Assembly (NCBI GenBank): GCA_964590575.1
Contig: CAZPWM010000019.1
Location: 1 to 41,130, forward strand
Direction of reading: 5' to 3'
Length of the DNA stretch: 41,130 nt
Source: an uncultured archaeon
Lineage (GTDB): Archaea > Asgardarchaeota > Thorarchaeia > Thorarchaeales > Thorarchaeaceae
Made by a program: the position numbers and the translations under genes. Under the pieces are notes generated by a model. That model did no database searches. It saw nothing but the letters and a program-made list of their open reading frames with translations, and was not told the DNA's origin. Shown here piece after piece: positions 11,907-28,631 of the stretch (positions are counted from its first letter, which is position 1; every line of letters starts with the position of its first letter).

Positions 11907-12061
11907 CCGTTCCCCGAAACCTAGACAATCTTGGACATCGAGTCCGAGATGATGTTCGGTTCCTGCTTCATCAAGGCTGCTCTCTGTAGATTTATTGAAT
12001 CTGTTAAGAGTCTTACCTCCTTTCCACAGGCGTTTTCAATCTCCGGCAAACTGATGGCGAC
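11907..12061 (-). ncRNA. TnpB omegaRNA scaffold overlapping the tnpB 3' end; element right end ...GGGGAACGG, guide would begin CTACTACTATTTCTC
   Basis: Expected position for omegaRNA; boundaries defined by similarity to the second copy at 28476-28631. Confidence 0.75.
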
Positions 12062-13150
12062 TAGATTCAGTGCAGCGTTGAGATCCCTATCAATCACTAA
12101 TCCGCACTCTTCACAATGATACTTCCTCTCTGAGAGGGACAACTCCTTCTTTCTGTGCCCACACTGTGAACACATTTTGGAAGATGGAAATGTTCGCGAG
12201 GCAATGACAAGCTCAGAACCATACCACAGGCACTTGTACTCCAGCTGTTTCCTGAACTCGTAGAATCCTACATCAGCTATTACTCTTGCAAGCCTTCGGT
12301 TCTTCATCATTCCTGACACAAGTAAGTCTTCAATCACCACCTTACTGTGGCTCTTGGCAAGGTGGGTTGTCAACTTGTGCAGTGTGTCCTGTCGGATGTT
12401 GAAGACCCTTAGGTACATCTTTGCAAGTCGTAACTTAGCCTTCTCTCGATTCTTGCTCCCCTTCTTCTTTCGTGATAAAGATCTATGTAGCTTTTTCAAT
12501 TTCCTCAGTCGTCTTCCAAGAGCCCGTGGATTTGCATACTGAGTACCATCACTTAGTGTGGCCAAGGTCTTAACTCCCAAATCCACTCCTACGGGCTCTC
12601 CATTTACTGGTTGTGGGTCTAGGATGTTCTCCTCCACAGTGACCGATACGAACCATCGTTCCGCTCTCCTTCTCACTGTGGCAGAGAGTATCCTTCCCCT
12701 ATGGTAGCTCTTCTTCTTCTCCTTGACTCGGATCTTCCCAATCCGTGGAAGCTGGATTGCTCTTCCCTGGAAACGGATGGTCCCAGTCAGTCTGAAGCTG
12801 TCCCTGACTCCCCTTCTCTTGAAGCGAGGGAATCCTATCTTTTGCCCTGTCTTTAATCCACGATGGAAGTTCTGAAAGGCTCTATGGAGGTCTCTCAGGG
12901 CTTCTTGAGGTGCACACTTGGAGGTTTCGTACATCCATGGGAACTGGTGCTTCTTCAGGGAGTTGAGAATCTTATGCTGTTTCATGGCATCAGTGAACCG
13001 TTCGTCGCCCTGATTATTCCTATAACGATTGATCCGTTGTTCGAGACCCCAGTTGTAGGCAAAACGAGCTACTCCTGAATGTTGAGCAAGGTATGACCTC
13101 TGAATGTTGTTGGGATCCAGTTCATACCTGTAGGCTCTTTGGATTAACAT
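11921..13150 (-). CDS. tnpB: RNA-guided endonuclease TnpB (IS607-type, no tnpA partner)
   Basis: N-terminal AYRYELDPN..ARFAYNWGL; RuvC residues in GVDLG, VIEDL and DRDLNAA; CSQC/CEEC zinc finger. Confidence 0.95.
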   Translation of the reverse strand: MLIQRAYRYELDPNNIQRSYLAQHSGVARFAYNWGLEQRINRYRNNQGDERFTDAMKQHKILNSLKKHQFPWMYETSKCAPQEALRDLHRAFQNFHRGLKTGQKIGFPRFKRRGVRDSFRLTGTIRFQGRAIQLPRIGKIRVKEKKKSYHRGRILSATVRRRAERWFVSVTVEENILDPQPVNGEPVGVDLGVKTLATLSDGTQYANPRALGRRLRKLKKLHRSLSRKKKGSKNREKAKLRLAKMYLRVFNIRQDTLHKLTTHLAKSHSKVVIEDLLVSGMMKNRRLARVIADVGFYEFRKQLEYKCLWYGSELVIASRTFPSSKMCSQCGHRKKELSLSERKYHCEECGLVIDRDLNAALNLVAISLPEIENACGKEVRLLTDSINLQRAALMKQEPNIISDSMSKIV

Positions 13151-18779: not shown

Positions 18780-19767
18780 TTTCGATGTCTATGACCTTTC
18801 CAGACTCAGCACTCTTTCTTGCAGCTTCAACAATCTCCAAAGCACAGAGAGCATCATCAATACTAACCTTCGGGGTCCCACCCGTCTTGATGCATCGCAA
18901 GAAATCATTGAGTACCTCTCGAACCGGTTCGCCATAGACCTTTATCGTGGCTCCTCTCTCTGGAAGGTTTATTGTGTCTCCTTTCTGCATAGGAGCTTGG
19001 TCCAAGTGCTGTACCTTGATTATCTGACCAAACAGGTCTAGCACCAACGCTCCTTTCGTGCCTGAAACGTCCATGGACCGTCGTCGTCCAGCATACTGTC
19101 TGGAGAGATGGAAAAAGTGTTCTGTTCCAGAATCAAACTTCACCATAACAGTTCCGCTGTTGTGAATACCACCTGCAATGTTACTTTGAGCATAGAGCTT
19201 TCCGGGTCCATTGCTGATTCTTGCCATGATATCAAAGTCATGGACTCCAATATCTTCGAAGACATCACCAAGTGATTGAATTCTCTCAGGTGCTACAAAT
19301 CCTCGTCTATCGTGAATCACAGTTCGAGGTGTTCCAATTGCGTCGGTTTCAATGAGAGATAGGGCTTTTCCAACAATAGGATTATAGATTTCCGAGTGAG
19401 AAATTAGGGTAACAATTCGTCGCTTTTTCACTATCTCCGCAACTTTCTTTCCATCCTCTAGTGTACTTGCCAGAGGCTTTTCAATCAGAATTCCTTTTAT
19501 CCCGTCATAGTTCGTGGCTATGGTATAGGCAATAGAGGCATGAGTGGAGGTGGGCGTGGCAATAACAACACCTTCTGGTTTTGTTTCATCAAGCATGTGC
19601 TCAAAATCAGTGAATGCTGTCGTGCCATGGTCCTTAGCCACACGCTCAACAGTGTCTTTATCCACGTCAGCCACACCTGCTAGGACTTCCATGTCACTAA
19701 GAATACGAGCGTGAATGCGACCCATGTTACCTGTTCCAACAATCACTATCTTTCGAGAAGACGTTAT
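18763..19767 (-). CDS. Gfo/Idh/MocA family oxidoreductase (start uncertain: ATA 19767 or GTG 19746)
   Basis: KIVIVGTGNMG Rossmann motif, IATPTSTH, IEKPLA, DIGVHDFD. Confidence 0.88.
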   Translation of the reverse strand: MTSSRKIVIVGTGNMGRIHARILSDMEVLAGVADVDKDTVERVAKDHGTTAFTDFEHMLDETKPEGVVIATPTSTHASIAYTIATNYDGIKGILIEKPLASTLEDGKKVAEIVKKRRIVTLISHSEIYNPIVGKALSLIETDAIGTPRTVIHDRRGFVAPERIQSLGDVFEDIGVHDFDIMARISNGPGKLYAQSNIAGGIHNSGTVMVKFDSGTEHFFHLSRQYAGRRRSMDVSGTKGALVLDLFGQIIKVQHLDQAPMQKGDTINLPERGATIKVYGEPVREVLNDFLRCIKTGGTPKVSIDDALCALEIVEAARKSAESGKVIDIEIKRRI

Positions 19768-19924
19768 CTATCACTCCTGTTGGGTTCAGACTGACGCGTT
19801 CTTCTTGACCTTTATACATTGCCATAGTTCTCCAGCTATATTGAGATTGCATGATTTTTACAGATTCATGTTGAAAAAGCGACACTCATTATCATGACGG
19901 TCTTATATTGACCTACCCATATCA

Positions 19925-20100
19925 ATGTATGAATCCAAGATTGATACAATCCTTCAGGGACTCACTAAAAAGATAATACACATCTTGGATCACTATGTCG
20001 CGCTGAGTCCCATTACACTTCAGAAGACAACTCCCTCCCTCGGACCCACCTCGCGCAAGCGGTGCGATTTGCCTCGTCGCACCCGGGGTGGGTCCTTTAA
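19925..20100 (+). ncRNA. Candidate structured ncRNA (possible pseudoknot plus GC-rich branched hairpin)
   Basis: Complementary blocks 19933-19941/19982-19990, 19957-19964/20004-20011, 20042-20053/20084-20095 and 20061-20068/20076-20083; G-U pairs favour the + strand. Confidence 0.45.
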
Positions 20101-20196
20101 CAAACTCGTTTTGAACAAAATCATTGGCCATCATTCTTAAGCGATGATGCTCAGATATCTACAAAATGACTGACAAACTGCAGAGGTTATTCTAAA

Positions 20197-20838
20197 GTGA
20201 ATGAGAATCGAAAACCAATGGTCGTGTTTGATACCTTCGGGCCTTACCTAGTTATTGGGCAGCCTACGTGTGTGAATTCTAAAGGTAAGGATATTGCACT
20301 GGCACCTGTTTCAGCATTATGCCGTTGTGGCGGGTCAGGAGACAAACCATTTTGCGATGGTACACACTCAAAAAATGGATTTGAGGGAATTAAAGATCCA
20401 GACCGACGTGAAGACAGGGTTGTTGAGTTCAAGGGTAAAGAGATTACAATTTACGACAATCGAGGAGTTTGTTCAGCTGATGGTGCCTGCGTGAGAGAAA
20501 GCCCAGAAGTCTTTCAGAAGGACAAGAAGCCACTGTGGATATTTCCGGATGAGGGAAGAGTGAGGAAGACCGTTGAAACAATCGAAAAGTGTCCATCTGG
20601 AGCCCTCAGTTATAGCCTTGGCACTCAAAGAATACAGGACCTAAACCGCAATCCCGGAATCAAGATTGCAAAAAATGGTCCATTGGAGTTTGTTGGTTGG
20701 ATTGAGCTCATCGATGATCAACGGTCAATGCCTGAGTCCAAAGAACACTACACACTATGTCGTTGCGGAGCATCAAAGAACAAACCATTCTGTGATAATA
20801 GTCACAAAAAAATAGACTTCAAGGATGATAAGAATTAG
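20197..20838 (+). CDS. CDGSH iron-sulfur domain protein (CDGSH - divergent 4Fe-4S - CDGSH)
   Basis: LCRCGGSGDKPFCDGTH and LCRCGASKNKPFCDNSH; central CSADGAC..CPSGAL. Confidence 0.92.
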   Translation: MNENRKPMVVFDTFGPYLVIGQPTCVNSKGKDIALAPVSALCRCGGSGDKPFCDGTHSKNGFEGIKDPDRREDRVVEFKGKEITIYDNRGVCSADGACVRESPEVFQKDKKPLWIFPDEGRVRKTVETIEKCPSGALSYSLGTQRIQDLNRNPGIKIAKNGPLEFVGWIELIDDQRSMPESKEHYTLCRCGASKNKPFCDNSHKKIDFKDDKN

Positions 20839-21062
20839 AACCCTGCTTAAAGTGAGATTTCTTCCGACTCAGGGCTTAGCGGCCGCTGTACACAAGTTCA
20901 TAAGCAAACTTTCTGAGAAACTTGTTGCAGGTACACGAAAAGCGAGCAGCGTTTTCTATCGTAGGAATTATCGAGAGTTCTTTTTCAAGCATCGTAAATT
21001 TCGTAGAAGGATACTACACTAGTTTTGACGACTTGCATATCGCATTTAGCGAGTGAATAACA

Positions 21063-21605
21063 ATGGGTTATGAAGAACGTGAGCCAATTGAGGCTACTGT
21101 GGCTGAATTAAAGCCACGAATGAAGAATGTCACCATTTCTTTCAAGGTGATCAGCATCGGTGAGCAGCGAGAGATCGAGTCCAGAAGGGACGGATCCTCA
21201 CACCGTGTTTGTGATATCACTGTTGGTGATTCTAGTGGAACTGTTCAGGTTCCTCTCTGGGACGAAACTATTGATAGCATAGACGAAGGTGCTACCTACA
21301 ATCTGACCAATGGATACACCGGACTCTTTCGAGGAAATCTACGATTAAATGTTGGTAGGTACGGCAAACTCGAGCAGGCTCAAGAAGCCATCGAAGAAGT
21401 CAACATGGATATCGATATGTCTGCTGAAGAGCACGAAGATGATAGACCCCGCAGGAGCTATGGTGGCGGCGGTGGCGGCCGAGGTGGCGGAGGCTACAGC
21501 GGTGGCCGAGGCGGCGGCGGTTATAGTGGTGGTCGCGGTGGTGGCGGTTACGGCGGCGGTGGAGACCGTCGTGGCGGTGGCGGCGACAGACGTCGTAGTT
21601 ACTAG
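21063..21605 (+). CDS. ssb: Single-stranded DNA-binding protein (single OB fold) with Gly/Arg/Tyr-rich tail
   Basis: VGDSSGTVQVPLWD and LRLNVGRYG OB-fold motifs; RGGGGYS repeats. Confidence 0.85.
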   Translation: MGYEEREPIEATVAELKPRMKNVTISFKVISIGEQREIESRRDGSSHRVCDITVGDSSGTVQVPLWDETIDSIDEGATYNLTNGYTGLFRGNLRLNVGRYGKLEQAQEAIEEVNMDIDMSAEEHEDDRPRRSYGGGGGGRGGGGYSGGRGGGGYSGGRGGGGYGGGGDRRGGGGDRRRSY

Positions 21606-21648
21606 ATTCGAAATTCAGAAATTATCTAAACCAGCAATAGCTGTTTGA

Positions 21649-21691
21649 TTGTGGGCAATTGATACTGATTGCTCACAAATCCTTATTTTTT
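21649..21691 (+). terminator. Hairpin plus T-tract terminator after ssb
   Basis: TTGTGGGCAATT / GATTGCTCACAA stem followed by CCTTATTTTTT. Confidence 0.6.
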
Positions 21692-21829
21692 AGTTCAATA
21701 TTAAAAACAGAAACTGACATCTTTATCGAGATTTGCAATTTCGATTTCACATGCATATGCTCTGATAGAGAAGCTTAAGAAAGTTAGACGTGTCTAATTC
21801 TATTGTATGTGTAAATAGAAAATCCAGAG

Positions 21830-22468
21830 GTGAAAACCATGGACATGAATCTCTTCTTTCGAATCTCATTTCTTAGCTTGTGGATTAGTATTGGCATTGT
21901 AAGGGGATACTATGGCAGAAAGACAAAGACGCATGATAGTATAGTTGGTATCTCTGAGAAGTTGAAGACAGCTAAGAATGAAGTGGGGCAGGGCTTGCTG
22001 ATTCTAACAGTAATAATCACTGTCATTGGAGTCATTGGTATCATTTTGTATCTACTATCCCCTCCATGGTGGACATGGACTCATCTTCCTCTTGGTGAAT
22101 ATATTCAGTGGGCAGGAATCGTTGTATCAATTATCCCAATCTTCTATTTGGTTTGGGTTCATCGGCACCTCGATAATCAGTGGTCAATAGCACTAGAGAT
22201 TCACGAAGAACATAAGCTGATCACAACAGGTCCATACAGGAGAGTCCGCCACCCAATGTATCTTGGTGTATTTGTCTATACAATTGGTTTATGTCTCATT
22301 TCCCTTGATATTCTAGTCATCCTGTTCTTTGTGTTTACAATCTGGATCAACTATAGAAGAATTCCCAGTGAGGAGCAGATGATGATTGACCAGTTTGGCG
22401 ATGAGTATCTCGAATACATGAAAAAGTCCGGCAGGCTCATACCATCATTTCGGTCTGATGAAGATTAA
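21830..22468 (+). CDS. Isoprenylcysteine carboxyl methyltransferase (ICMT/Ste14/PEMT) family membrane protein
   Basis: HKLITTGPYRRVRHPMYLG and EEQMMIDQFGDEYLEY motifs. Confidence 0.9.
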   Translation: MKTMDMNLFFRISFLSLWISIGIVRGYYGRKTKTHDSIVGISEKLKTAKNEVGQGLLILTVIITVIGVIGIILYLLSPPWWTWTHLPLGEYIQWAGIVVSIIPIFYLVWVHRHLDNQWSIALEIHEEHKLITTGPYRRVRHPMYLGVFVYTIGLCLISLDILVILFFVFTIWINYRRIPSEEQMMIDQFGDEYLEYMKKSGRLIPSFRSDED

Positions 22469-22486
22469 GCATTAACTAAGAAGAAG

Positions 22487-22508
22487 TGGTGCGGAGGGCG
22501 AGATTTGA
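22487..22508 (-). repeat. tRNA-Leu 3'-end direct repeat, copy 1 (TCAAATCTCGCCCTCCGCACCA on minus strand)
   Basis: Exact 22-nt match to 24521-24542. Confidence 0.97.
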
Positions 22509-22614
22509 TAAGGATGCAAGATTTAGATTGTGTTAATTGGAGGTCTAAGGAACTATTGCCGAATTCATTCTAGTCTTCGTCCTTTTAGTACTGTCTGCAG
22601 TCGTTGGAGTCTTT

Positions 22615-22902
22615 TTGGTAGATGCTCAAATGACAAAACCTTCTATCGAACAAAGTCAAAGAATCTTTTGGCAATCTCTGATTATCTTTTTCTTTGGGCT
22701 AATGGTATCTGTTACATGGTATTTACTCTGGATGAGTACTGCATTGAGTTTATCTGATTCTCTTGTTTTTTCTGGATGTACATTATTAGAGGCTATACTA
22801 ACCATTTTGATTGGATTAAGGCACTTGAGGAAATATAGAGAGTACGTTCGAGTGAATCTTGAGATTGAAGAAGGGCTATCTGATATAGTATCAGCTGAAT
22901 GA
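22615..22902 (+). CDS. Hypothetical 2-TM membrane protein (cassette cargo)
   Basis: Two hydrophobic segments; stop codon lies just before repeat copy 2. Confidence 0.6.
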   Translation: MVDAQMTKPSIEQSQRIFWQSLIIFFFGLMVSVTWYLLWMSTALSLSDSLVFSGCTLLEAILTILIGLRHLRKYREYVRVNLEIEEGLSDIVSAE

Positions 22903-22908
22903 GGAAGA

Positions 22909-22930
22909 TGGTGCGGAGGGCGAGATTTGA
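22909..22930 (-). repeat. tRNA-Leu 3'-end direct repeat, copy 2
   Basis: Exact 22-nt match. Confidence 0.97.
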
Positions 22931-22959
22931 TATGGGCGTTAAACGTCAGTTATCATTTG

Positions 22960-23415
22960 ATGACAGATCACAACTATTCTAACATCTGCAAAGAATGTGG
23001 TGGATACTGTTGCGCACAAGGAGGTTCTATTGCGACTAAGTTGGAAGTAGACCGGATAATTAAGGCTGGATATCAGAATAAGTTCATTGAAATTACGGAG
23101 AACTGCTATATTACAGATTTTGGAGAGGACCTGATATGTCCTTATCTCAAGGAATCCACCTGTAAAATCTATCCTGTACGCCCCTTGCTTTGTAAGAAAT
23201 ATCCTATTTTCTCAACAGATGGTGAAGAACATTATTTGATTCATTGTCCCTTGACTCAATACCTTTCAAAGGATGATCTAGCTCAATGTATTGAAGCTGC
23301 ATTAGAAGTCCCTGAAGAACTATTTACATGTGCCCAGAGATTTATGGCTCCTTTTGGCTCAAGAATTGATGAACGAATGCGCAAATTCAAAATGGAACGA
23401 ATTGAACTGAAGTAA
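22960..23415 (+). CDS. YkgJ family cysteine-cluster (Zn/Fe-S) protein (cassette cargo)
   Basis: CKECGGYCC...CPYL....CKIYPVRPLLCKKYP; ATG 22960 preferred because TTG 22927 lies inside the repeat. Confidence 0.88.
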   Translation: MTDHNYSNICKECGGYCCAQGGSIATKLEVDRIIKAGYQNKFIEITENCYITDFGEDLICPYLKESTCKIYPVRPLLCKKYPIFSTDGEEHYLIHCPLTQYLSKDDLAQCIEAALEVPEELFTCAQRFMAPFGSRIDERMRKFKMERIELK

Positions 23416-23418
23416 GAA

Positions 23419-23440
23419 TGGTGCGGAGGGCGAGATTTGA
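23419..23440 (-). repeat. tRNA-Leu 3'-end direct repeat, copy 3
   Basis: Exact 22-nt match. Confidence 0.97.
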
Positions 23441-23455
23441 TTCTCGTAATTTTAG

Positions 23456-23815
23456 CTAAAGCACATCAGATTCCCTTTTTCTCATCTTCCTACCTACAAA
23501 GACCAACCATGTAATGTAAGGAATCCAAAGTGTCATGCCTATGGTCAGGATTCCAATAACCGGTCCTATTAGGACAACTGAGTAAATATCTAGGAACGAA
23601 TACCACAACCATATCGTTAACACAATAATGGGTAGTAAACCATTTCGATACGTCTTCCAATGAAGCGCACCATGACATCTGTGTGAACAAGTTTCTCTAT
23701 TTTGTAGCCAAGAAACTTCAGCTTTTCCACACCACTTACACACACCCTCTGTTGCACTTTTTGAATCTCCATACTGACCATACCTCGGATATCTTCTATC
23801 TTCCTCCGATTCCAT
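23456..23815 (-). CDS. Hypothetical membrane protein with CxxC...CxxxC zinc-ribbon motif (cassette cargo)
   Basis: CKWCG...TCSHRC followed by two TM helices. Confidence 0.7.
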   Translation of the reverse strand: MESEEDRRYPRYGQYGDSKSATEGVCKWCGKAEVSWLQNRETCSHRCHGALHWKTYRNGLLPIIVLTIWLWYSFLDIYSVVLIGPVIGILTIGMTLWIPYITWLVFVGRKMRKRESDVL

Positions 23816-23893
23816 ATGTATGCGTTCCCCTAAACTAACGAGTCACAGAGAGCATCTGAATTATGTTACATATCAATCTAGTTGTAAAAGAAG

Positions 23894-23916
23894 TGGTGCG
23901 GAGGGCGAGATTTGAA
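23894..23916 (-). repeat. tRNA-Leu 3'-end direct repeat, copy 4 (23 nt, the full 3' exon)
   Basis: Exact match to 24521-24543. Confidence 0.97.
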
Positions 23917-23942
23917 GGGATAGTTTCAGGAAAGTTACTATT

Positions 23943-24446
23943 CTATCCGCAGTTTTGTACTGTAATATTGTAAATGAAACGAACCCTCAGATTCAACGGA
24001 AGGTCACCAATCTTGACAATGTCATGTGGATATGTTATTACAGCTGCAACCACACAGTCCTCTCCAGGATGTATTTCATCGACATAGACTGTGTAGTATG
24101 TAAGAGTCATAGTTATCCTTGTGATATTTGTTAAATATCCGCTTGAACCACATATGCCTTGAAACACTACAATGAGTAGTTCTGACGAGAAGTCTACATC
24201 TGGAACCTCGGGGATTTGGGTGTGTCCGCTATACGAATCTAGCCACAAAGTTTCCCATGTCAGTGAATCTCTAATGGCAAAGTTATCCCGGGCATAACCA
24301 CGGCCACCAAGGTGACCAATTCTCTCAAAGGGCACCTCAATACTCGGAAGAATTCCTAGATCAGGTTCTACAAATATGAAGAACGAGGCCGCTAAGACAA
24401 TACAGATTGTAGTACCTGTTAGAAGTTTAACTGGAACTTTTTTCAT
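23943..24446 (-). CDS. Membrane-anchored protein with PrcB C-terminal-like domain (cassette cargo)
   Basis: N-terminal TM; PDVDFSSELLIVVFQG..GSSGY...ITYPHDIVKI pattern; ATG 24446 with AGGTGG RBS. Confidence 0.75.
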   Translation of the reverse strand: MKKVPVKLLTGTTICIVLAASFFIFVEPDLGILPSIEVPFERIGHLGGRGYARDNFAIRDSLTWETLWLDSYSGHTQIPEVPDVDFSSELLIVVFQGICGSSGYLTNITRITMTLTYYTVYVDEIHPGEDCVVAAVITYPHDIVKIGDLPLNLRVRFIYNITVQNCG

Positions 24447-24520
24447 GAACACTGCCCCACCTTTGACGATCCATATAACTCCTGGAAACATATAGACCTA
24501 GTGAACAGGTAAGAAAGAGA

Positions 24521-24638
24521 TGGTGCGGAGGGCGAGATTTGAATTGTCGCTCCGAGTCGTAGTGGCTCGGAGTCTCGCGAACTCCTACGAGACTAGGCCC
24601 TCAACCTAGCGCCTTTAACCTGGCTGGGCAACCTCCGC
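24521..24638 (-). tRNA. tRNA-Leu(GAG) with 30-nt intron at position 53/54 (24544-24573), CCA encoded
   Basis: Anticodon arm CTAGG-TTGAGGG-CCTAG and long variable arm; removing the insert restores the GCGAG-TTCAAAT-CTCGC T-arm (88 nt mature). Confidence 0.92.
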
Positions 24639-24773: not shown

Positions 24774-24868
24774 CTCGCGAACTCCTACGAGAATGCCTCT
24801 TCGTGGCGAAATACCACGAAGTCTAGGCCCTCAACCTAGCGCCTTTAACCTGGCTGGGCAACCTCCGC
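24774..24868 (-). pseudogene. 5' part (nt 1-53) of a second tRNA-Leu(GAG), carrying a different 30-nt BHB intron at 43/44 (24793-24822)
   Basis: Exon sequence identical to 24574-24638 and ends exactly at the 53/54 junction; GCCT/AGGC central helix with AGA and ATT bulges. Confidence 0.88.
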
Positions 24869-25262
24869 ATATGAATGGATAAAGGCCAACACTCCGTATT
24901 CCAGGAAAGCGCTTCCGGAGCATTGTGTTATGGAGTTCATCGATTTCCGTAGAAGTTTGAATGATAAGGATTTCTGTTGCAAGAGATGTACCGTGCTGAA
25001 AAGAAGAGGGTTTATTCGGAACAGACGGAGTCACATCAAAGTGACAGACCAATCTGCTCTCATGTTTTGAACTACTCAATTATCTTGTAGTTCCAGCCAG
25101 CCACTCGAAAAGATTTGGCTGTGTTGCCCTATTTTGGGGCTTTGATTTATTGTCATTTTTCATTTATTTTCACCTATTAACTATAGATTATATTTCGATT
25201 TGCTTTATAACTATGGGAACCTGCACAAATTTTAGAGCACTTTCAAGACTAAAATTGAGAGA

Positions 25263-25370
25263 TGGAGCCCCGGGCGAGATTTGAATTCGCGCCTCACAGT
25301 GCAGATGTCCATGAGGTCTCGCGACGTTCTGCTTACGAAGCAGACGCTATAACCCCTAAGCCACCGAGGC
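25263..25370 (-). tRNA. tRNA-Thr(CGT) with 32-nt intron at 53/54 (25286-25317), CCA encoded
   Basis: Anticodon arm TCTGC-TTCGTAA-GCAGA; BHB core CGCG/CGCG with AGA and AAT bulges; 76 nt mature. Confidence 0.92.
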
Positions 25371-28197: not shown

Positions 28198-28306
28198 TGG
28201 CGGGCCCGGTGAGATTCGAACTCACGAACTCCAACTTAGAAGGCTGGCGCCCTATGAACCTCACAATACACGAATTGTGCATAGTACCGGGCTAGGCAAC
28301 GGGCCC
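28198..28306 (-). tRNA. tRNA-Arg(TCT) with about 30-nt D-loop intron (approx. 28256-28285), CCA encoded
   Basis: GGGCCCG/CGGGCCC acceptor stem; CCAGC-CTTCTAA-GTTGG anticodon arm; hairpin insert CACAAT..ATTGTG in the D-loop; exact splice sites uncertain. Confidence 0.88.
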
Positions 28307-28455
28307 TGCCCCCAGCGTCGATGTTCTAAGGACATAAAGCTTTCCGATTGACGTACCAAGAAGAAGTGGTTGCCCGAGGTTTGGAAGAGAACCCCGGGCG
28401 TTGTGGGTGTGTGTGAAACCAGTCCAGAGTAGGTACTGGGTGTGAATTAACATAA

Positions 28456-28631
28456 AGGAGTCAAATCTTGCATTCCCGTTTCCCGAAACCTAGACAATCC
28501 TGGATAATGCAATCCTTGATTGATATTCGGTTTCTGCTTCTCAGAGGCTTGCTCTGAATAAATCCTGATGATTTCCAAAGTCTTACATCCTCTCCACAGA
28601 CAGTTAGAGTCTCCGGCAAACTGACGGTGAC
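28456..28631 (-). ncRNA. Stand-alone TnpB omegaRNA (scaffold 28476-28631 plus guide GAATGCAAGATTTGACTCCT...)
   Basis: Colinear similarity to 11907-12061 over about 155 nt, with no tnpB coding sequence upstream. Confidence 0.8.

Follow-up and report, generated by a model that had tools for sequence, protein, structure and literature searches.

Single-gene cassettes separated by copies of a tRNA-Leu 3′ end in a Thorarchaeaceae genome, compared with known integrative systems

The cis-mobilizable elements (CIMEs) of streptococci are units flanked by attachment (att) sites which carry no recombination genes, accrete in tandem at tRNA 3′ ends and require the integrase of a neighbouring or incoming element. 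Integrons based on attC sites have been reported in Archaea, enriched in metagenome-assembled genomes (MAGs) of Asgard lineages (PMC9668308; for this and the other publications cited, statements refer to the available parts of the text), and integrative elements that target tRNA genes are quoted at 9-23 kb (PMC9897764). The locus described here lies in a stretch of 41,130 nucleotides (the window; positions 1 to 41,130 of contig CAZPWM010000019.1, assembly GCA_964590575.1) from an uncultured archaeon of the family Thorarchaeaceae (Asgardarchaeota), whose genome (G000) comprises 3.4 Mb on 194 contigs, of which the window occupies contig C19, and is estimated to be 91% complete. Beside a tRNA-Leu(GAG) gene in this window, four small genes are lined up one by one between exact copies of the 3′ end of that tRNA.

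The repeated 22-mer, TGGTGCGGAGGGCGAGATTTGA, is present in five mismatch-free copies, all on the plus strand as written, at window positions 22487, 22909, 23419, 23894 and 24521, with spacings of 422, 510, 475 and 627 bp, and none of 100 dinucleotide-preserving shuffles yielded any match to it. The fifth copy is the 3′ end (positions 55-76, CCA included) of the minus-strand tRNA-Leu(GAG) gene at 24521-24638, and each of the four inter-repeat intervals consists of one compact open reading frame (ORF) and little else. The original prediction, made from the letters of the window, had described five unmutated copies at these spacings, the last one in a real tRNA, with one small and unrelated gene per interval and no integrase in or next to the array; all of this was confirmed, with the correction that the tRNA gene bears a non-canonical intron in its T arm and that a second copy of the tRNA body, truncated at its 3′ end, lies at 24774-24869. 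The features of the array are as follows, repeat copies being given on the strand of the tRNA.

24521-24638, minus strand: tRNA-Leu(GAG) gene, 118 nt, CCA encoded
about 24574-24638, minus strand: exon 1 of the tRNA-Leu(GAG) gene
about 24544-24573, minus strand: T-arm intron of the gene, 30 nt
24521-24543, minus strand: exon 2 of the gene
24521-24542, minus strand: repeat copy 5 (O5), tRNA positions 55-76, the presumed primary insertion site
23916-24520, minus strand: cassette 4 (tRNA-proximal), ORF 23943-24491 (minus), PrcB_C, PF14343
23894-23915, minus strand: repeat copy 4 (O4), exact 22-mer
23441-23893, minus strand: cassette 3, ORF 23456-23815 (minus), 119 aa, no Pfam match
23419-23440, minus strand: repeat copy 3 (O3), exact 22-mer
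22931-23418, plus strand: cassette 2, ORF 22960-23415 (plus), CxxCxxCC/YkgJ family, PF03692
22909-22930, minus strand: repeat copy 2 (O2), exact 22-mer
22509-22908, plus strand: cassette 1 (distal), ORF 22615-22902 (plus), 95 aa, two hydrophobic segments, no Pfam match
22487-22508, minus strand: repeat copy 1 (O1), the farthest recognisable copy from the tRNA

The protein of cassette 1 had no relative among the cassettes compared, while the CxxCxxCC/YkgJ family of cassette 2 was met in 18 distinct contexts, mostly between repeat copies. Cassette 3 specifies a protein with a Cys-rich (Zn-ribbon-like) N-terminus followed by membrane segments, a paralogue of which (29% identical, 94 aa; C57:852-1136) is located in another tRNA-fragment array of the same genome. 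The ORF of cassette 4 likely starts at 24446, which gives the PrcB_C-domain protein an N-terminal membrane or signal segment, and homologous cassettes are present at L047, L048, L042 and L110. The GC content of the cassettes (35-41%) is slightly lower than that of the neighbouring genes (44-46%). Pfam detected no integrase among the ORFs in or beside the array of the window.

The minus strand of 24521-24638 reads as a class II tRNA with an acceptor stem, a 3-bp D stem, a GAG anticodon loop and a long variable arm, in which the two strands of the T stem are split by 30 extra nucleotides plus the T loop. As it stands, the gene is reported neither by ARAGORN, which finds tRNA-Gln alone in the window, nor by Rfam, which finds three tRNAs there but none at O5, because the 30-nt insert separates the T loop from the 5′ strand of the T stem. 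RNAfold returned a cloverleaf with the 30-nt insert located in the T arm, and upon in silico deletion of approximately 30 nt ARAGORN called an 88-nt tRNA-Leu(gag). The gene thus contains a non-canonical intron between tRNA positions 53 and 54, the 3′ edge of which is at most 1 nt from the repeat boundary. Alleles in relatives are intron-free, have similar introns, or carry an insert elsewhere in the T loop.

The assembly of the region was compared with Logan contigs from three other salt-marsh runs (X2, X3 and X4), which match it without differences. The junction at O1 is bridged by contigs of X2 and X4, that at O2 by X3 and X4, and that at O4 by X2 and X3, and O5 is bridged too; for O3, no contig among the matches listed has 31 letters on both sides. 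Misassembly at the 22-mer was rejected, as independent contigs of the three runs reproduce the junctions at O1, O2, O4 and O5. In a 151-nt contig of a further run, X6, a single repeat copy connects the last part of cassette 1 with the beginning of cassette 3; this would represent the precise loss of cassette 2, although with a depth of 2.4 and just 21 letters on one side of the joint it is weak evidence.

Arrays of this layout, in which an interval holds one or two genes, recur at other tRNA genes of the genome, on contigs C4, C174, C57, C6, C22 and C10. The arrays on C4 and C174 follow tRNA-Leu(CAG) and tRNA-Leu(UAG), respectively, those on C57, C6 and C10 follow genes called as Glu, Thr and Met by ARAGORN with a permissive intron setting, and on C22 the repeat series has no adjoining full tRNA gene. 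MAG assemblies of the genus often break at arrays: the ThiL contigs of several MAGs stop near the tRNA, and in G020 small contigs end no more than a few hundred bases from 11 perfect copies. Such breaks suggest strain heterogeneity in cassette content.

With up to two mismatches, the 22-mer was found in each of the 28 species genomes of the genus, with 2-18 copies per genome and often in close series, and in a draw of 201 genomes from the phylum it was found in all 43 genomes of the family; family members outside this genus have 2-6 copies, for the most part on separate contigs, a number for which the tRNA-Leu genes themselves roughly account. We compared the syntenic site, between the gene for a GFO-type oxidoreductase and tRNA-Leu/ThiL, at 19 distinct loci, of which 13 have at least two repeat copies and six the tRNA's own copy only. 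Each locus holds 0-4 recognisable cassettes, and the 37 cassettes together represent 25 ORF families. Content and order both vary: the acyl-CoA thioesterase cassette lies farther from the tRNA than YkgJ does in L040 and nearer to it in L052, families such as GNAT, PrcB_C, SSB-like, CDGSH and several unnamed small genes also change position, and L079 is an empty site where the oxidoreductase gene lies directly beside the tRNA without any cassette. Distal repeat copies in relatives carry more mismatches than proximal ones, and in L049 the gap between YkgJ and GNAT retains the first 15 nt of a repeat copy. Arrays were seen solely downstream of tRNA genes and always in one orientation. Gain, loss and reordering of cassettes among relatives, and similar arrays at other tRNA genes of the genome, were points that the original prediction had offered for checking, and both were observed.

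Cassette proteins are about as diverged as the proteins of the backbone, the mean identity of the YkgJ cassette protein being 72% as compared to 69% for the backbone, and PrcB_C identity correlates with that of the backbone (r = 0.97, 6 pairs); many cassettes are therefore old residents of the genus and not recent captures. Horizontal transfer of cassettes between species was considered and is unsupported, given that cassette identities track or resemble backbone identities. The repeat copies that flank YkgJ in its 18 contexts show pairwise identities of 0.84 and 0.90, as against 0.68 for the adjacent spacer and 0.63 for third codon positions, and must therefore be either constrained or repeatedly renewed. 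The T-loop end of the repeat plus TAT lies approximately 30 nt before the YkgJ start codon and has a TATA-like look, and the trailer is T-rich on the tRNA strand.

To describe the unit, intervals from the genus loci, from this genome and from 114 repeat-bearing metagenomic stretches (those among the matches listed) were pooled and amounted to 119 distinct intervals between repeat copies. A single ORF of at least 60 aa was present in 100 of these (84%), while nine intervals contained two, four contained three, two contained four and four contained none. The median interval is 603 bp long and the largest ORF spans a median of 80% of it, while the start codon is preceded by a median of 70 nt and the stop followed by a median of 24 nt. 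Genes that have an interval to themselves range from 60 to 832 aa, up to six single-gene units stand in a row, and the multi-gene intervals look like operons. Orientation is towards the tRNA in 65 cases and away from it in 54, and the ORFs fall into 64 protein families. Among the cargo are ketopantoate reductase, hydrolases, and beta-propeller, TPR and LVIVD proteins. Defence-type cargo was also noted, namely an OLD-like AAA/TOPRIM protein together with a HEPN AbiV protein in one interval (L103:443-2887), a second OLD-like AAA/TOPRIM protein (L165:4425-6107) and an Mrr-like nuclease (L111:2798-4165). The commonest unannotated cassette ORF (nine copies, approximately 245 aa) encodes a multi-pass membrane protein and terminates inside the repeat; it was rejected as a candidate recombinase. 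Some cassette ORFs (L131:986-1723 and L163:1812-2549) read into the repeat and stop at its terminal TGA, with a C-terminus ending in ...GAEGEI, and the last codons of a gene can thus be provided by the repeat.

In 86 distinct repeat copies, the side beyond the CCA is purine-rich on the plus strand, in tRNA-linked and internal copies alike, and corresponds to the T-rich trailer of the tRNA strand. The tRNA-derived part of the internal copies varies in length (22, about 27, about 33 or about 42 nt, with one copy including a fragment of an intron), as would be expected of att sites carried by the elements; apart from this variable stretch, the other side of the repeat is unconserved in internal copies.

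Recent events are visible at tRNA-Leu(CAG) in two contigs of different metagenomes, L184 and L195, whose flanks are 99% identical and of which one has a cassette that the other lacks. The unit that is extra in L184 and missing in L195 is 574 nt long, contains one ORF of approximately 150 aa and lies next to the tRNA, between the tRNA's own perfect repeat copy and a distal copy that differs from the 22-mer at 4 of 22 positions, and the longest uninterrupted identity between the two sites of this insertion is 12 nt. As the distal site is imperfect despite the 99% identical flanks, it must have arrived with the insert and was not copied from the target, which argues for a cassette-borne site and against target-site duplication. 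A more distant stretch, L157 (92-95% identical), has an empty site where L184 holds 2.4 kb, and the pairs L184/L222, L154/L183 and L112/L158 likewise differ in content between conserved flanks.

A second kind of change affects the tRNA gene itself, upstream of the array:

24774-24869, minus strand: truncated tRNA-Leu(GAG) body (positions 1-53) without its 3′ part

This body has a different 30-nt insert, placed after the anticodon stem, and stops exactly at the T-stem/T-loop boundary, i.e. at the boundary of the repeat; the complete gene with the T-arm intron sits 120 bp downstream of it. The region 24774-24979 aligns at 81-92% identity to many relatives, in which it directly abuts the tRNA 3′ end, and because it is thus syntenic with the tRNA gene of relatives it represents the ancestral tRNA-Leu body, which lost its 3′ part at the T-stem/T-loop boundary. 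Where the truncated body ends, the junction looks like the start of the repeat in inverted form. From this, strand exchange at the T loop may be suspected, and with it a connection of cassette traffic to tRNA gene disruption. Another 5′ fragment of tRNA-Leu(GAG) was noted at C174:690-719.

We favour, with moderate confidence, the explanation that the arrays consist of att-flanked cassettes without an integrase which are moved in trans by site-specific recombination at the tRNA 3′ end. The unit would be one gene, or rarely a small operon, with approximately 70 nt upstream, approximately 24 nt downstream and a tRNA-3′-like site spanning the T loop to the CCA, 22 nt or longer. Entry would proceed by conservative recombination between the site of the unit and the identical stretch of the tRNA gene, whereby the tRNA would be regenerated and a displaced copy of its 3′ end left on the far side; repeated entries would push older cassettes outward, and exchange between copies would delete and reshuffle cassettes. 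A circular intermediate and the position of the crossover are presumed. The enzyme would act in trans from a gene outside the array; its kind is conjectural, the likeliest candidate being a tyrosine integrase from an element (a virus, a plasmid or an integrative element) that is present transiently and is missed by MAG binning, and CIMEs and attC clusters without an integrase would be precedents for such a supply. An identity block of variable length, a distal site that is imperfect in a fresh insertion, regeneration of the tRNA, the single orientation and the placing of the new unit next to the tRNA all fit classical att recombination, from which the arrays depart in having one gene per unit and no integrase that was found. 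Gene capture by a trans-acting recombinase with the newest cassette nearest the tRNA, as put forward in the original prediction, is partly supported, by the behaviour of the intervals as independent single-gene units, by the empty site in one relative, by the degenerate distal repeats of relatives and by the L184 insertion beside the tRNA, which fits the polarity; neither the recombinase nor the circles on which it relied were found.

The search for the enzyme yielded results that weigh against this explanation. PF00589 has no match in this genome and matches in 8 of the 28 genus genomes; the XerA model (NF040815) gave one N-terminal match of 16.6 bits, to a 232-aa protein without a catalytic domain; PF16795, for SSV-type integrases, was found in none of the 28 genomes; serine recombinases, small ones, occur in 8 of the 28; and 17 of the 28 have a match to neither PF00589 nor PF00239. 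A genus-specific tyrosine-recombinase hidden Markov model (HMM), for which 17 recombinase domains of the genus were used, recovers every control locus but had no match in this genome, among the array loci or within the 664 kb that surround the listed metagenomic stretches. The 22-mer is absent within about 1.5 kb of all 20 integrase loci of the genus. No IMG/VR contig with the 22-mer was found, and none of the listed metagenomic stretches is circular or has a terminal direct repeat, i.e. the anticipated excised circles were not recovered either. Cassette proteins as diverged as the backbone may also mean slow turnover, and conservation of the repeat could derive in part from use as a promoter or terminator instead of recombination. 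Elsewhere, Cas1 (PF01867) had no match in this genome, a profile search for RVT_1 returned none, tblastn of the ORFs of the genus integrase loci against this genome matched neighbouring genes only, Pfam found no recombinase among the cassette ORFs tested, and no integrase fragment was found in the arrays, whose recurrent neighbours are housekeeping genes (NAD kinase, ribosomal S3Ae, PGM, ABC/CbiQ). As MAGs often miss episomes, the integrase negatives represent absence of evidence, yet they are consistent across searches. The paucity of tyrosine recombinases in G000 and in the genus is unusual for archaea unless it is an effect of binning.

Two related ideas were considered. In one, the arrays are a true integron analogue, a chromosomal platform for the capture, storage and reshuffling of single genes that uses tRNA 3′ ends as a universal site and relies on a recombinase of an unrecognised family or on a co-opted host activity, the same reaction making T-arm introns and 3′-truncated tRNA bodies and so connecting cassette traffic with the way in which disrupted tRNA genes of archaea arose; we assign this a modest probability. 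In the other, which we consider somewhat unlikely, the platform is dedicated and host-encoded, with the tRNA 3′ end serving as attI and attC at once and a recombinase that is neither of the tyrosine nor of the serine type. A host platform would account for arrays in every one of the genus genomes when known recombinase families are sporadic or missing, for near-perfect repeat copies around cassettes as old as the species splits, and for an expansion concentrated in one genus, the other genera of the family keeping their few, mostly separate copies; against it, no candidate gene was found, no conserved unknown gene stands beside the arrays, and with incomplete MAGs the missing integrases are weak evidence. 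The failure to find a recombinase would also suit a process without any site-specific enzyme, in which homologous or microhomology recombination between repeats, and with incoming repeat-bearing DNA, deletes, duplicates, reorders and occasionally adds units. Direct repeats of at least 22 nt can support deletion and unequal exchange, and the X6 contig, weak as it is, shows a precise loss of this kind; we nevertheless judge the process improbable, as it provides no origin for the linkage of a gene with a tRNA 3′ fragment or for the predominance of single-gene intervals, the 12-nt identity at the L184 insertion is short for RadA-type exchange, and arrays lie solely downstream of tRNA genes in one orientation.

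The cassettes might instead be eroded remnants of multi-kilobase, integrase-bearing islands which integrated in tandem and were reduced to one gene each. Both archaea (PMC8371274) and the tycheposon islands of Prochlorococcus (10.1101/2020.12.28.424599) provide known cases of integration in tandem and of decayed elements among which partial tRNAs are scattered, and distal repeats in relatives are degenerate or truncated; random erosion, however, would not leave one intact gene in 100 of 119 intervals with median margins that hold regardless of gene length, no integrase fragment was found in any array, and the recent L184 insertion is already a single gene of 574 nt, which makes this origin very improbable. 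More improbable still are repeats that arose as target-site duplications from a 22-nt staggered cut, made by a casposase/Cas1-like integrase or a transposase on inserts without a site of their own: the succession of a leader-like tRNA body, repeat, newest insert and repeat may recall CRISPR or casposon insertion, but the tRNA-derived part varies in length, the distal copy of L184 departs from its target at 4 of 22 positions between 99% identical flanks, Cas1 was not found in this genome and the repeat analysis of the window reported no inverted repeat flanking cassettes. We give least credence to strain variants misjoined at the 22-mer, or to copies that are the 3′ halves of split tRNA genes. 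The breaks of many MAGs near arrays, as in G020, and the 3′-less body at 24774-24869 speak for one or the other, but contigs of three other samples reproduce four of the five junctions and the same architecture appears in MAGs of many studies. Pairing of split tRNA halves was rejected, the duplexes of the truncated-body trailer with the leaders of four copies having energies within those of shuffles (z -0.90 to +0.65).

Beyond O1 the window continues with small genes whose families occupy other positions in relatives, some of them between repeat copies, and which probably belong to the variable region:

19747-22486: probable older part of the variable region
20197-20838: CDGSH protein
21063-21605: SSB-like protein
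21830-22468: ICMT-like protein

A search for repeat remnants to the left of O1 gave best local alignment scores of 14-18 as compared to a shuffle 95th percentile of 17, which is not significant. The SSB-like OB-fold protein (21063-21605) has a Gly/Arg-rich repetitive tail and at least four close paralogues in the genome, and its homologue in G016 (L107) sits between two repeat copies. The window contains two more intron-bearing tRNA genes, both on the minus strand: the first, at 25266-25370, has a 34-nt insert in the variable region and an anticodon CGU as read from the Rfam alignment, while the second, at 28201-28310, has an insert in the region of the D arm and only a partial Rfam match. A TnpB/IS605 OrfB gene (11921-13150) directly adjoins tRNA-Gln, and the TnpB end sequences (repeats 11913-11970 and 28482-28631) belong to a multi-copy repeat family found across many of the genome's contigs.

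Little is known of the ways in which Asgard archaea, the nearest known relatives of eukaryotes, acquire and rearrange accessory genes. The arrays represent a genus-wide hotspot in which dozens of unrelated small genes, among them membrane proteins, small enzymes and defence-type modules, are held one per slot behind tRNA genes, with a content that varies even between strains whose flanks are 99% identical. Should the enzyme be found, it would amount to an independent answer, the second beside that of integrons, to the problem of how single genes can be captured and stored, with one of the most conserved sequences of the cell as its docking site. The truncated tRNA body and its intron-bearing replacement also make testable the old idea that mobile DNA drives the disruption of archaeal tRNA genes.

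In the literature we found no description of sub-kilobase single-gene cassettes bounded by tRNA fragments, in agreement with the original prediction that the architecture is undescribed, although supplements, especially that of the tycheposon study, may hold small elements. It is not described in the available parts of publications on Asgard mobile elements (PMC8813620, PMC11529989), archaeal tRNA gene fragments (PMC9897764), archaeal tyrosine recombinases (PMC8371274), archaeal Tn7-like elements (10.1101/2025.07.27.667033) or archaeal integrons (PMC9668308). Related concepts are integrons, CIMEs and tycheposon islands. Integrons resemble the arrays in that most of their cassettes have a single ORF, measure a few hundred bp and are delimited by recombination sites, in a single primary insertion site with the newest cassette proximal, and in accessory cargo of largely unknown function that includes defence-type genes; arrays without an integrase are common among integrons, as here. 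They differ in that the site is an attC hairpin, an imperfect inverted repeat folded as a single strand, and not a tRNA 3′ end, in the presence beside the array of IntI, a tyrosine recombinase with an additional domain, which neither PF00589 nor the genus HMM detected here, and in cassettes that are co-oriented, mostly promoterless and served by one shared promoter, as opposed to the mixed orientation (65 against 54) and median upstream gap of 70 nt of the present cassettes, each of which seems to carry its own upstream region. Folding of an attC type was rejected, as four 111-nt junctions folded as DNA were no better than shuffles (z +0.18 to +1.50), and the repeat analysis of the window reported no inverted repeat at the junctions.

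Casposon- or CRISPR-type insertion, which involves a Cas1-family integrase and a target-site duplication of fixed length, does not fit, with Cas1 not found in this genome, a repeat of variable length and an imperfect distal copy. Elements and islands that target tRNA genes resemble the arrays in being bounded on one side by an intact tRNA and on the other by a displaced part of its 3′ end as direct repeat, and in an identity block from the T loop to the 3′ end whose length varies between elements (PMC8371274, PMC9897764), but they range in size from kilobases to tens of kilobases and have, or once had, an integrase, in contrast to units of median 603 bp with one gene and no integrase or integrase fragment found. 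CIMEs, like the cassettes, are att-flanked and without recombination or transfer genes; they differ in being bacterial, usually multi-gene and derived from recognisable integrative and conjugative or integrative and mobilizable elements, while no donor element is known for the arrays, and no autonomous element with an integrase of the same site specificity was found at the integrase loci of the genus, in IMG/VR or in the listed metagenomic stretches. Tycheposons have a tyrosine (rarely serine) recombinase and a replication module, a hallmark not seen in the present cassettes, and cargo of up to 10 kb or more; in their islands partial tRNAs are scattered and do not lie between nearly every gene, although smaller cargo-only units are possible there. 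The islands of Prochlorococcus nonetheless grow beside particular tRNA genes with older material pushed outward, have partial tRNAs that separate units and 'plug-in' cassette cargo, and mostly lack an active element (10.1101/2020.12.28.424599), and of the described systems it is these tycheposon islands that are the closest concept to the single-gene arrays behind the tRNA genes of this archaeon.

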